Of a stretch of DNA of 64,000 nucleotides, positions 803 to 29,305 are shown one piece after another. A model generated the notes under the pieces. The model ran no database searches. It was not told where the DNA came from and was given only the letters and a program-made list of their open reading frames with translations. The first letter of the stretch is position 1. Every line of letters starts with the position of its first letter. Origin of the DNA: an uncultured Candidatus Saccharibacteria bacterium (GTDB lineage: Bacteria; Patescibacteriota; Saccharimonadia; Saccharimonadales; Saccharimonadaceae). The stretch spans positions 73,714 through 137,713 of the forward strand of contig CAKVAO010000002.1 in assembly GCA_934725355.1 (NCBI GenBank). The letters run 5' to 3'. A program made the translations under genes and the position numbers.

Positions 803-887
803 TGGTGCGCGAGAGAGGACTTGAACCTCCACGCCCGAAGGCATATGCTCCTAAGGCATACGTGTATACCAATTTCACCACTCGCGC
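803..887 (-). tRNA. tRNA-Leu (anticodon UAG), long variable arm, CCA encoded
   Basis: Reverse complement folds by hand as GCGCGAG/TG/GTG-AAATTGGTATA-CAC/G/TATGC-CTTAGGA-GCATA/TGCCTTCGGGCGT/GGAGG-TTCAAGT-CCTCT/CTCGCGC-A-CCA. Confidence 0.9.
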
Positions 888-4122: not shown

Positions 4123-4128
4123 GGCTAT

Positions 4129-4134
4129 ATTATA
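4129..4134 (-). promoter_or_regulatory. putative -10 (TATAAT) 6 nt upstream of hsdR ATG, no SD (leaderless-type)
   Basis: Minus strand reads ttgttaTATAATatagccATG. Confidence 0.4.
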
Positions 4135-4148
4135 TAACAAAGATAACC

Positions 4149-4269
4149 AAAGTCCCTTCTTGGTAAAGGGGCAGATTTGGCGCACGATATTGGATGCCGC
4201 CCAACTAAAGCCCCTTCTTGGTAAGAAGGGGCAGATGAAATTACGTAGTAATTTCAATCGGGGTTATTG
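4149..4269. repeat. 121-bp direct repeat, copy A (between DUF559 gene and hsdR)
   Basis: Identical to 4793-4913 except 2 mismatches (t/c at 4153/4797, t/c at 4206/4850). Contains hairpins 4152-4172 and 4210-4232 and the inverted repeat GAAATTAC-gta-GTAATTTC (4237-4255). Confidence 0.95.
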
Positions 4270-4622
4270 ATAGACTGATATTCAAGTAGTCTATATAGAT
4301 ATCGACACACGCCATCAAAATTATTCATTAATTCATTATTGGGTATTCTCAGGACTTTAACGCCATATGCAGACAATTCCTTTGTACGGTTAGCGTCATA
4401 CGCCATACCGTGATCCATATAGTGCTGCGAGCCGTCCAACTCTACAACTAGATGTAGCTTAGGACAATAAAAGTCCACGATGTATTTACCCATCGGCTTT
4501 TGCCGATACCAATGTACGGGGAATTTTAGCAGGCAGTCATACCACAAATGTCGCTCTTCCCTTGTCATGTTGCGACGAAGCTCCTTGGCGCGCGCCATGT
4601 TTGACGTATTGTGCATACGCAT
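4254..4622 (-). CDS. DUF559 (PF04480-type) endonuclease-domain protein
   Basis: The sequence AKELRRNMTREERHLWYDCL...WYRQKPMGKYIVDFYCPKLHLVVELDGSQH...RTKELSAYGVKVLRIPNNEL matches the DUF559/Vsr-like PD-(D/E)xK pattern as I remember it. The last 5 codons and the stop lie inside repeat copy A. Confidence 0.8.
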   Translation of the reverse strand: MRMHNTSNMARAKELRRNMTREERHLWYDCLLKFPVHWYRQKPMGKYIVDFYCPKLHLVVELDGSQHYMDHGMAYDANRTKELSAYGVKVLRIPNNELMNNFDGVCRYLYRLLEYQSINNPD

Positions 4623-4628
4623 ATATTT

Positions 4629-4637
4629 ATTTTAGCA
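4629..4637 (-). promoter_or_regulatory. extended -10 (TGcTAAAAT) 6 nt upstream of DUF559 ATG
   Basis: Minus strand reads aaaTGcTAAAATaaatatATGcgt. No SD is present. Confidence 0.5.
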
Positions 4638-4665
4638 TTTTACAATGTTCCCGGCATTGGCTGAG

Positions 4666-4782
4666 CCTCCCTTTGGTAAAGGGAGGTGCCGAGCGTTAGC
4701 GAGGCGGAGAGATTGTATTTTAGCACACAATATCCCCAGCGTGGCTGACGCCACTGCTTGCCCCTTTTTACCAAAAAGGGGC
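4666..4782. repeat. hairpin-rich spacer inside the cassette
   Basis: CCTCCCTTT-ggt-AAAGGGAGG (4666-4686), GTGGC-tgac-GCCAC (4741-4754) and GCCCCTTTTT-acc-AAAAAGGGGC (4760-4782). These belong to the same CCCCTT..GGTA..AAGGGG family as the hairpins in the 121-bp repeats. Confidence 0.85.
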
Positions 4783-4792
4783 CAAAGTCACT

Positions 4793-4913
4793 AAAGCCCC
4801 TTCTTGGTAAAGGGGCAGATTTGGCGCACGATATTGGATGCCGCCCAACCAAAGCCCCTTCTTGGTAAGAAGGGGCAGATGAAATTACGTAGTAATTTCA
4901 ATCGGGGTTATTG
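4793..4913. repeat. 121-bp direct repeat, copy B (overlaps 3' end of hsdS)
   Basis: See copy A. Contains hairpins 4796-4816 and 4854-4876 and the inverted repeat 4881-4899. The last codon and stop of hsdS (CAA TAA, 4913-4908) are the first 6 nt of the repeat. Confidence 0.95.
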
Positions 4914-5527
4914 TACCTTCTCTTTAAACGTCAACAGCTTATCGCGATAGTATTCGTATTGCTTTTGTCGAAGCGCTATCTCGGCAGGCAAGCCGTCGGT
5001 CAGGCTGGTTGTCATGGCGCTGAATTTGTCTAAGATGTTTTTTATGCGGTGCTGTTCAGATAGAGACGGTATGCAAATTTTGACCTTCTTTAGCCTATTC
5101 TTAGATACGTTAAATCTAGTCACGCCCATAGCAGTTTTTCTTAGCTGACGACGTAGAGTTCTACTGCGAAAAACGTATTTCACGAACCCTGGATCTATAT
5201 CGTTTAGGTTGTTAAACCTGTAGCCTACACTAAAGCTATTTAGATAAATATCATCACCTAAGTTGCTGTCAACGACTGAAGAATATGCAACCTCATCAGG
5301 CGTCTCTGACGATCCCGTAAATAATACATCGCCATAAATTACGCGCCTCTGTTTTTCATTGGCACCTATTGTTACGGGCTCGATGCAATCACTGTTAACT
5401 GCTAAGTTATTAAAGATACCGCTGTATGAAACGTACTTAGCGTTGCCGTATTTGCCGAAGTCCTCTTTGCACTTACCGGATAGACCGCCATAGAGCTGCC
5501 CAATGTCACCGAGGGTGAGAACACTCG

Positions 5528-5535
5528 CCCCCCCC
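5528..5535 (-). repeat. homopolymer G8 (C8 on plus strand) inside hsdS
   Basis: Direct count in ctcgCCCCCCCCtggt. Confidence 0.95.
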
Positions 5536-5616
5536 TGGTAACGACTTTAAGTAATCAAAAGATAATAGCTGGTCGCGGTAATATTCATACTGCTGCTTGC
5601 GCAAGTCCAACTCTGT

Positions 5617-5652
5617 CTGCAAAGCAGTCTGCAAAGCAGTCTGCAAAGCAGT
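5617..5652 (-). repeat. 3 x 12-bp perfect tandem repeat (CTGCAAAGCAGT) encoding (TALQ)3 in the HsdS central conserved region
   Basis: Direct reading of 5617-5652. The translation shows TALQTALQTALQ. Confidence 0.95.
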
Positions 5653-6148
5653 AAACTTGTCTAGTATGTCTACGATCTCCTGTTGGACAGGTAGTGGTGG
5701 CACGGGAATTTCAAAATCTTCTGTCACGCTCAATGAAATTTGCGGCATTGAACCCATTCCCGATGCTTCATCTCTAAACTTCTGAGTATTATTCTGTAAA
5801 ACATAACATAAATACTGCACACTTACGGTGTTTTCATGTGTATAAGCCCACATTTCATTCTTGAATGTAAAAGGTTTATCGCAATACACGAAATCAATGA
5901 CACCTCTTGACTGTACAAGCACAGCAGGAACCCTTGTAATATTGGCTTTAGGAATATCCTTTTCAAAAGCATTTATCACAGTTTTCCCACCAGCAAAAAT
6001 TCGAACATCGCCATTTTCATCAGCAATTTCTTTCATTTTACTCGCGGTGATTGGTGTACCCCGTAAACGAGTATATACACCACTAATTTTCTTGTATTCC
6101 ACCCCATCGGGACAAAGTTGATTGATTAAATCACCAATCTTACTCATG

Positions 6149-28729: not shown

Positions 28730-29305
28730 ATGAGTATCTGGGATCTTTTTCATTCTAAGCGTTCTAAGTCTACAAGCAATAAGTCTGAAGCGGATCTTAC
28801 TGAAGAAGACAACAAAACGGATCTAACTATTGCCCATCCTATAGAAACAGATGGTGATCGTGCCAATCAGGCAAGGTTGAACGGTGGTTATAGTGATGAC
28901 ACTTTTGAAAACGACATCACTCATCCTATTACACCCGAGGACGGCCGTAATCTCGATATTGAAACGTCTAATAAAGTAATTGATAGCCCGGATATTTCGC
29001 GTCCAATTGTTGGCGACGAAGATCCTGTGGAGTTTGCTATCTTCACTAGTATTACCGACCCGTATGGTGTTGTTTCTGACTCTGACGATGATGACAGCGA
29101 CAGTTCTGACTCTGATTCCGATAATGACGATCAGGGTTATGGCTCTGACTCTGATTCTGACGATGATGACGACTCTGATTCTAATAATAATGATGACGAC
29201 GACAACAACGGCGACGACAACAACGGCGACGACAACTCTGACTCTGACGACGATGACAATTACAACTCTGATTCTGACGACGATGACGATTTCTACGACG
29301 ACTAG
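28730..29305 (+). CDS. poly-Asp/Ser/Asn low-complexity acidic protein
   Basis: 191-aa ORF with a strong AGGAGGA SD and a terminator downstream. About 40 of the last 78 residues are Asp, with no Lys or Arg. Confidence 0.7.
   Translation: MSIWDLFHSKRSKSTSNKSEADLTEEDNKTDLTIAHPIETDGDRANQARLNGGYSDDTFENDITHPITPEDGRNLDIETSNKVIDSPDISRPIVGDEDPVEFAIFTSITDPYGVVSDSDDDDSDSSDSDSDNDDQGYGSDSDSDDDDDSDSNNNDDDDNNGDDNNGDDNSDSDDDDNYNSDSDDDDDFYDD

Follow-up and report, generated by a model that had tools for sequence, protein, structure and literature searches.

What is a predicted nuclease gene doing between hsdS and hsdR of a type I restriction-modification (R-M) operon, and why do direct repeats bracket it? 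The question is raised by a 64,000-nucleotide (nt) stretch of contig CAKVAO010000002.1 from an uncultured Candidatus Saccharibacteria bacterium (hereafter, the window), in which this position is occupied by a gene of DUF559, one of the large nuclease families of 'unknown function'. The original prediction had proposed a self-contained module, duplicated or inserted into the operon, and had speculated about a guarded effector. The analysis shows that the gene lies within an array of structured repeats resembling the BoxC/PIT/TM elements of Escherichia coli. These modules have a common anatomy, are closely associated with DUF559 genes elsewhere, covary in the manner of triple-helical DNA, end sharply together with the gene in unrelated surroundings, and occur with and without the gene in sister strains. 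On balance, the locus is probably a selfish or transferable cassette of a DUF559 gene and triplex repeats, whose presence in the R-M operon, a passive landing site, is incidental.

The elements of the locus, in window coordinates, are as follows.

4254-4622, minus strand: DUF559 gene of 122 amino acids (Pfam PF04480, E=1.3e-29; Vsr-like PD-(D/E)xK)
4623-4663, minus strand: AT-rich leader lacking a Shine-Dalgarno sequence; its -10-like box, TGCTAAAAT, ends 6 nt from the ATG
4146-4269, minus strand: repeat copy A (R), lying between the 3' end of DUF559 and hsdR; inverted type-C module plus a polypyrimidine/polypurine hairpin, hp3 (4150-4170)
4790-4913, minus strand: repeat copy B (R), beginning with the final hsdS codon and the stop
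4210-4269, plus strand: module of copy A; hairpin A GCCCCTTCTT-ggt-AAGAAGGGGC, hairpin B TGAAATTAC-gta-GTAATTTCA, tail CGGGGTTATT(G)
4854-4913, plus strand: module of copy B, the same module as 4210-4269; its tail supplies the hsdS stop codon
4729-4782, minus strand: forward module, part of the hairpin region U' (4789-4690); hairpin A GCCCCTTTTT-ggt-AAAAAGGGGC, hairpin B GTGGC-gtca-GCCAC, tail TGGGGATATT
4664-4689, minus strand: hp6, CCTCCCTTT-acc-AAAGGGAGG, the remnant hairpin A of an upstream type-G module

The two direct repeats share 98% identity over 124 nt at a spacing of 644, which agrees with the predicted spacing and slightly exceeds the predicted length of 121 bp. A blastn comparison of the flanks returned a repeat match of 132 nt at 96%, and no other long repeat of comparable kind is present in the 64-kb window. 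Copy B starts at the end of hsdS (...GTA CAA TAA), and the same bases in copy A read ATC AAT AAC CCC GAT TGA, the C-terminus of DUF559; both reading frames had been correctly assigned. The last five DUF559 codons and the stop (C-terminus ...INNPD) fall inside the tail of the downstream module, which is inverted relative to the gene and overlaps its stop, the canonical position. Because plus-strand modules overlap both stops, the left edge of the repeat (CAATAACCCCGAT), the DUF559 C-terminus and the hsdS stop codon all correspond to a module tail. The extra hairpins of the original prediction are present and, within the window, occur only at this locus. Its view of a self-contained insertion stands, but the repeats are triplex-hairpin modules and represent neither a long target-site duplication nor simply a local one.

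The 122-residue product matches PF04480 with 102.7 bits (cut-off 20.6) over profile positions 4-108 of 109, and this is its sole Pfam match. Three motifs (D50-F, E61-x-D63-G-x-x-H67 and R92-IPNN) are invariant among 33 homologs, and the catalytic residues D50, E61, D63 and H67 align to PDB entry 3hrl, the nearest solved structure (E=2e-12). The catalytic motif is intact, in line with the original prediction, and nuclease activity is predicted from it. The protein is 44% identical to E. coli YcjD. DUF559 is listed in one clade with I-Bth0305I (PDB 3r3p), of Vsr/EDxHD type (PMC3424549). The homing endonucleases of this fold clade are likewise encoded by small, free-standing selfish genes with presence/absence polymorphism, but DUF559 lies outside any intron or intein, is flanked by structured repeats with no split host gene, and in the window matches DUF559/YcjD and 3hrl instead of I-Bth0305I. 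For apparent DUF559 proteins of 205 amino acids (P0153 and P0156; 3367-3984 in strain L178), a genuine hsdS or read-through fusion was rejected: the gene caller had read TGA as Trp, through the repeat block.

The extended -10 element proposed 6 nt from the ATG was recovered in part. The TGCTAAAAT sequence is present, but a promoter scan found no full -35/-10 site at DUF559 or hsdR, and the box is therefore regarded as a consensus match only. The two genes have similar upstream regions (4623-4650 for DUF559, 4123-4145 for hsdR): in each, a -10-like box (TGCTAAAAT and TATAAT, respectively) ends 6 nt ahead of the ATG and a Shine-Dalgarno sequence is lacking, an arrangement that suggests leaderless mRNAs for both.

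Three full modules are found in the window, all of them at the DUF559 locus. Judged by the triplex code, the tail mirrors the purine arm at 8-9 of 10 positions in the modules at 4210-4269 and 4854-4913, and at 10 of 10 in the module at 4729-4782. The module nearest the DUF559 ATG has lost hairpin B and the tail, and the gene is intact. Away from the locus, neither the hairpin motif nor a full module was found in the rest of the 64-kb window or in a further 9 kb or so of flanking sequence; as far as this stretch goes, a REP family spread through the genome was set aside. No Rfam 15 family matches the window or five canonical DUF559 loci.

Triplex repeats of the BoxC/PIT/TM type have been known for about 30 years, and Hoyne et al. 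reportedly described the BoxC/PIT/TM_ECO repeats of E. coli and other bacteria in 2000. To our knowledge, no associated enzyme, origin or function had been assigned to them. The E. coli element (CCCTCNCCC-N3-6-GGGNGAGGG-N3-GGGNGAGGG) folds as a single-stranded DNA triplex in vitro (Holder et al. 2015, PMC4666352). This element is intergenic and forms inverted pairs of types A and B; it marks loci that differ by rearrangement among strains, and no transposase or integrase was found near it (PMC4666352). The window modules possess the same three blocks, a polypyrimidine arm, a polypurine arm and a polypurine third strand that mirrors the latter (G·GC, A·AT and T·AT, with A-to-T substitutions), and the likeness extends to intergenic placement, inverted pairing of two subtypes and strain-to-strain rearrangement. 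They differ in the second loop, which is a 14-21-nt hairpin plus linkers as opposed to 3 nt in TM_ECO and 1-6 nt in ITxF, and are thus a variant outside TM_ECO sensu stricto. Their arms are CT-rich with A/T ends (CCTCCCTT, GCCCCTTCTT), unlike CCCTCNCCC. Furthermore, the modules bracket a protein gene, whereas published work on BoxC/PIT/TM_ECO reported no mobility or enzyme gene.

Is this arrangement peculiar to the window? The comparison covered 86 other DUF559 loci, namely those of the closest homologs (L087-L092) and 80 metagenome loci (L093-L172) of relatives that are 45-61% identical. DUF559 is solitary in all 86, and the contexts are unrelated, mostly housekeeping genes. Up to 300 nt from DUF559, the density of perfect-stem hairpins is 6.4 per kb, compared with a background of 0.77 per kb. 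Of 81 loci, 57 have a hairpin with a polypyrimidine arm in the 150 nt upstream of the gene, and 55 of 82 have one in the 150 nt downstream; beyond 1 kb the density of such hairpins falls to 0.045 per kb. Full modules number 176 in 0.46 Mb of DUF559 loci (0.38 per kb) and 7, all weak, in 1.30 Mb of DUF559-free control loci (0.005 per kb), where they are roughly 70-fold rarer. The commonest layout is a type-G module upstream on the plus strand (30 cases) and a type-C module downstream on the minus strand (32 cases).

The module, of about 50 nt, comprises hairpin A (e.g. CCTCCCTT-loop-AAGGGAGG), a T or TG linker, hairpin B, whose stem is free and covarying and whose loop is of the cGNAg type, and a tail. 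The tail mirrors the purine arm from the closing pair onwards, with G matched by G, A by A or T, and C by T. Agreement between tail and arm under this triplex code is 0.706 in register 0, as against 0.35-0.44 across nine shifted registers and 0.537 +/- 0.010 for shuffled tails. At the first position, the closing base, G/G occurs 68 times and C/T 65 times, with 17 exceptions. At the level of 52 distinct arm classes, agreement amounts to 0.827, compared with 0.609 +/- 0.022 when tails are permuted. Both hairpins show compensatory change (231 double-change cells versus 77 in shuffles), and they are 94% paired, against 45-54% with the partner slid, a percentage that is partly circular because the module instances were selected for having hairpins. 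Two other relations were considered for the tail, a Watson-Crick partner of the polypyrimidine arm and a direct repeat; the register-shift control speaks against both, and direct-repeat identity of tail to arm is 0.355 versus 0.578 for the mirror relation.

Longer repeats are built around the gene as well. Direct repeats of at least 40 nt lie on both sides of it in 28 of 76 testable loci, the longest being those of L142 (317 nt), L136 (258), L115 (243), L097 (190), L145 (188), L151 (165) and L119 (155), and inverted repeats of at least 30 nt are found in 25 of the 76. L145 carries two different DUF559 genes with the same 188-nt block after each. The unit has sharp boundaries: a stretch of 495 nt, running exactly from -73 to +52, is 94.7% identical between L087 and L089, and their flanks are unrelated (1.5 kb available per side). 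Homology in other locus pairs stops at the same module edges. Unit ends read AAGCCTCCC...GGGAGCCTT, and insertions lie 8-26 nt past an upstream stop codon. Solo modules more than 1 kb from the gene occur, as do long arrays that lack a gene. Tandem arrays were seen in L097 (3728-3830 and 4380-4565, 50-nt period) and, with a period of about 120 nt, in L115 (1950-2950) and L119 (3790-4600); they resemble BIME-like REP clusters.

These data also bear on a purely cis-regulatory explanation, by which DUF559 would be an ordinary gene, its modules a 5'-untranslated element masking the ribosome-binding site together with terminator-like insulators, the repeats products of slippage or unequal recombination, and any movement passive. 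In minimal loci, the tail of the upstream module indeed places GGAGG 5-9 nt before the ATG; the hairpin hp2, which precedes TTTGGTT, was flagged as terminator-like, and insulation would make sense for the co-oriented DUF559, hsdR and hsdS genes. However, RNA is reported not to form purine-motif triplexes, and neither promoter nor terminator activity was seen for E. coli PIT elements (PMC4666352). Modules without a gene and long arrays exist, the window gene is intact next to a module devoid of hairpin B and tail, and unit boundaries this sharp in unrelated contexts exceed what local regulation explains. We therefore regard a regulatory role as the sole explanation as unlikely, though it deserves attention.

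The layout recalls two systems in which repeats and a gene travel together. In REP/RAYT systems ('REPtrons', TnpA-REP), a single small nuclease-type gene also lies between inverted repeats that fold as single-stranded DNA, with solo copies and tandem clusters elsewhere and no target-site duplication. RAYT, however, is a Y1 HUH transposase, whereas DUF559 has a PD-(D/E)xK Vsr-like fold; the DUF559-associated repeats carry a triplex-coded tail, and an action of the enzyme on them is putative. By analogy, DUF559 and the triplex repeat may form a comparable pair of repeat and cognate nuclease gene. Integron cassettes are similar in that promoter-poor small open reading frames lie between directly oriented imperfect palindromic sites, may be arranged in tandem (as in L145), and are gained or lost as a gene plus one repeat. 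They differ from the DUF559 units, whose repeats lack the R/L box layout of attC and possess the triplex-coded tail. An integron or attC identity was rejected, as there is no integrase within about 10 kb on either side of the locus.

Does the unit come and go at the window site? Close strains were taken from a 90%-identity HsdR protein cluster of 30 members. Four junction arrangements were recovered, of which states 0 to 2 are listed here.

State 0 (L176): hsdS-(R+U')-hsdR, no DUF559; neighbourhood present on 5 contigs
State 1 (L173, L178, L181): hsdS-(R+U')-hp6-DUF559-(R+U')-hsdR; direct repeats of about 240 nt
State 2 (window): second U' gone, 124-nt repeats left

The original prediction had suggested comparing orthologous loci for presence or absence of the unit, and the window, L173, L178 and L181 have DUF559 where L176 has the same junction devoid of it, even though HsdR of L176 and L181 is 98% identical. 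It had also held that recombination between the repeats would excise the cassette; the L176 allele retains a single repeat block, as such recombination would leave. Two findings had been named that would argue against the proposal, the same arrangement in all relatives and the loss of catalytic residues. A DUF559-less allele exists, and the residues are in place. State 0 may represent an ancestral empty site or a deletion between repeats; since it still carries DUF559-type modules, we favour loss. The duplication of about 240 nt is bounded on the right by the hp6 loop and on the left by CAATAACCCCGATTGA. A 9-bp microsatellite (GTGACTTTG) between hp3 and hp4 varies in copy number by strain, with 1 copy in the window (4782-4793 region), 3 in L081 (98-124), about 9 in L173 (4135-4215) and at least 10 in L181 (1-90). 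A Hadza gut metagenome contig, L084, is 100% identical to the window.

Because the contigs come from metagenomes, the repeat-gene-repeat structure might be suspected to be a mis-join. Contigs do break inside the repeats (L086 ends at window position 4884, and the contigs L174, L175 and L182 begin within U'), an N-gap is present at the repeats in L178, and L081 is seemingly circular. Yet the order hsdS-R-U'-DUF559-R(-U')-hsdR recurs in at least four samples, in independent assemblies made with different assemblers, and the two repeat copies differ in sequence, so that an assembly artefact is scarcely credible. The 177-nt terminal self-overlap of L081 was considered as a circular excised form or a tandem amplification, but a state-1 allele, with R+U' after the gene, explains it. 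Likewise, L174, L175 and L182 were rejected as candidate empty sites; these contigs begin in the second U' copy.

A consistent explanation of the locus can be outlined. A DUF559 gene inside an array of BoxC/PIT-type modules would have landed in the hsdS-hsdR spacer of the type IC operon. Each module (polypyrimidine/polypurine hairpin, second hairpin and purine tail) would fold, as single-stranded DNA, into a hairpin bearing a purine-motif triple helix as its cap. The canonical unit consists of one module before the gene and an inverted module over its stop codon, and the frequent doubling of module blocks on both sides of the gene accounts for the 124-nt direct repeats of the window. Recombination between blocks, or copying from a filled allele, would add or remove the gene and change the repeat length, and we explain the alleles of the sister strains in this way. 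Finally, DUF559 may recognise or nick the folded modules, thereby promoting its own spread and local instability, as RAYT does with REP.

This last step leads to a broader and more tentative proposal, which we consider possible but fall short of calling probable: DUF559 may be the missing protein partner of BoxC/PIT repeats, a structure-specific nuclease that reads single-stranded DNA folded as a hairpin plus purine triplex and drives copying, loss and array expansion of the module-gene-module unit. For the cassette reading itself, an independent lineage adds support, at the E. coli K-12 ycjD locus (L177; NC_000913.3, 1351030-1351900). One of the 23 TM_ECO elements of the genome lies 167 nt downstream of ycjD, on its own strand; it is the only match in 12 kb, shuffles give none, and the probability for a random gene is roughly P = 0.004. 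The ycjD stop codon is located inside a degenerate motif inverted relative to this TM_ECO element, which is itself perfect, and a second copy of 39 nt of the ycjD 3' end lies 106 nt downstream. The region upstream of ycjD also contains a perfect 17-bp hairpin (TCACCTCATTCTGACAA). The gene holds the sapF-fabI site in strains that lack eefRABCD, and the site is polymorphic (PMC12817139).

The same observations could be read the other way round, with the triplex repeats as autonomous unstable or selfish DNA and DUF559 as a structure-specific nuclease, kept by the host or by the repeat family, that processes or repairs stalled forks and triplexes caused by the repeats and thus serves repair, not mobilisation. 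DUF559 shares homology with the repair nickase Vsr (PMC3424549, PMC1189080), BoxC/PIT repeats are an obstacle to polymerases in vitro and a mark of unstable loci (PMC4666352), and BoxC copies are kept in E. coli lineages devoid of ycjD (PMC12817139, PMC4666352). Such a guardian role leaves unexplained the tight, symmetrical flanking by modules, the stop codon inside a module, and the sharing of the module-gene-module unit between unrelated contexts, and we consider it rather improbable.

Several points weigh against a self-spreading cassette. The triplex of the E. coli element went undetected in vivo (Holder et al., PMC4666352), and in vivo folding of the modules, their recognition or nicking by DUF559 and the resulting gain, loss or array change are all inferred. 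No target-site duplication was seen at 13 element ends, and there is no recognisable transposase or recombinase. About 73 kb of this genome hold one DUF559 copy and no solo modules. Part of the covariation could arise from co-inheritance of gene and modules, in instances selected for hairpins. State 0 could result from an assembler skipping a loop, although it is seen on 5 contigs, and the GGAGG in module tails fits a purely cis-regulatory role too. Lastly, the alleles could have arisen by ordinary homologous recombination or by horizontal transfer, with no role for DUF559.

The cassette reading nevertheless has consequences that can be examined. The association of DUF559 with the repeats is tight, symmetrical and phylogenetically broad, and it is testable with one protein and one oligonucleotide. 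Were DUF559 to act on the repeat in its folded form, a natural protein would be reading triple-helical DNA, and the unit would be a new class of minimal mobile cassette, a REP/RAYT-like system with a different enzyme and a triple-helical DNA site; this would also account for the origin of BoxC/PIT repeats and for genome instability in their vicinity. Each component, whether DUF559, BoxC/PIT repeats or genes within type IC loci, is already known on its own. No open-access paper or preprint linking BoxC/PIT repeats with DUF559 or ycjD was found, although a description elsewhere is possible, and the bounded, strain-polymorphic pairing of DUF559 genes with a hairpin-containing triplex-repeat variant appears to be undescribed in the open-access literature.

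Genes embedded in hsd loci are familiar from prrC in the EcoprrI locus and from the 'rlo' genes in Campylobacter type I hsd loci. The original prediction had raised, by analogy, a PrrC-like role in which DUF559 is a second-line effector coupled to, or guarded by, HsdMSR. Like prrC, DUF559 is a foreign gene in the hsdS-hsdR slot of a type IC system. To place this slot in context, we used 80 related type IC loci (L001-L080) from species-representative genomes, the nearest HsdR being about 60% identical. In about half of them hsdS abuts hsdR; the remainder hold an insert of 0.4-2.8 kb, and roughly 40% have an unrelated gene at the junction. The inserts encode 23S_rRNA_IVP-like (four-helix-bundle), PDDEXK_3, Fic+Bro-N, AAA_13, RES, TIR, AbiH, T5orf172 and DUF4238 proteins. 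As these are mutually unrelated, the junction is a general landing site and, judged by its gene content, a hot spot for accessory and abortive-infection-type genes.

The company of AbiH, TIR, RES, Fic and AAA_13 genes, together with weak PADLOC hits that reach no further than the domain level (methyl-directed REase and DpdF nuclease domains), could be taken in favour of an effector. The linkage data point elsewhere: DUF559 is absent from all 80 related type IC loci, and no type I R-M gene lies within 4 kb of any of the 86 other DUF559 loci. Since the family has no R-M linkage, the guarded-effector idea finds poor support, its position at a junction with Abi- and toxin-type genes being all that speaks for it. 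The closest DUF559 relatives sit between housekeeping genes, the L176 sister strain keeps the hsd operon with no DUF559, and in the window hsdS is apparently phase-off and DUF559 intact. Unlike prrC and rlo, DUF559 shows no homology to PrrC or RloC (an ABC-type ATPase plus an anticodon-nuclease domain), the cassette has its own flanking repeats, and the family lacks conserved hsd linkage. A PrrC-like function is accordingly very improbable. The proposal of a self-contained inserted module, on the other hand, accords with the absence of DUF559 from the 80 loci and with its polymorphism among near-identical strains.

The host operon itself comprises three genes in the order hsdM-hsdS-hsdR, all on the minus strand, with the DUF559 open reading frame between the last two.

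7708-6149, minus strand: hsdM, identified by Pfam profile search
6146-4908, minus strand: hsdS, ATG at 6146 and stop at 4908; two target-recognition domains, frameshifted
4122-985, minus strand: hsdR, with an EcoR124_C domain and, ending 6 nt upstream of the ATG, a TATAAT box

The C-terminal domain of HsdR is EcoR124_C (PF12008, E=1.6e-61 in the Pfam search), on which basis the system is assigned to type IC; the gene order and a 4-amino-acid tandem repeat in the centre of HsdS agree with this assignment. The operon varies in three places, through a putative poly-G switch in hsdS, the number of TALQ repeats, and gain or loss of the cassette. The original prediction had implied an intact hsdS. 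In the window, however, a +1 frameshift breaks the gene within a G8 tract at about 5527-5534 (minus-strand sense CCAGGGGGGGGCGAG), whereas the 95% identical strain L178 has G7 at 2373-2379 and an intact HsdS of 421 amino acids. The difference resembles phase variation of the specificity subunit through a poly-G tract; it may alternatively reflect a homopolymer sequencing or assembly error. In EcoR124I/II-type switches, the number of 4-amino-acid repeats in HsdS alters the spacer length of the recognition sequence. A 12-bp tandem repeat at 5608-5652 encodes TALQ three times in the central conserved region of HsdS, and twice in L178; this repeat is a predicted switch of the same type. The hsdS alleles of two sister strains are half-size or rearranged (L173, 3443-4024, 193 amino acids; L176, 3958-4572, 204 amino acids), which is consistent with recombination between the two conserved regions and loss of the second target-recognition domain.

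A tRNA-Leu gene (803-887, minus strand) follows the hsdR stop at a distance of about 100 bp, so that the hsd island abuts a tRNA gene. Next to the tRNA gene, 698-724 and 764-790 form a pair of 27-nt repeats whose hairpins have cGAAg loops (AAAAGGCTCGCCGAAGCGGACTTTATG). Farther along the window, a degenerate tandem repeat rich in TCTGAC/GATGAC units (29075-29289) is apparently coding, for an acidic Ser/Asp-rich repeat protein.

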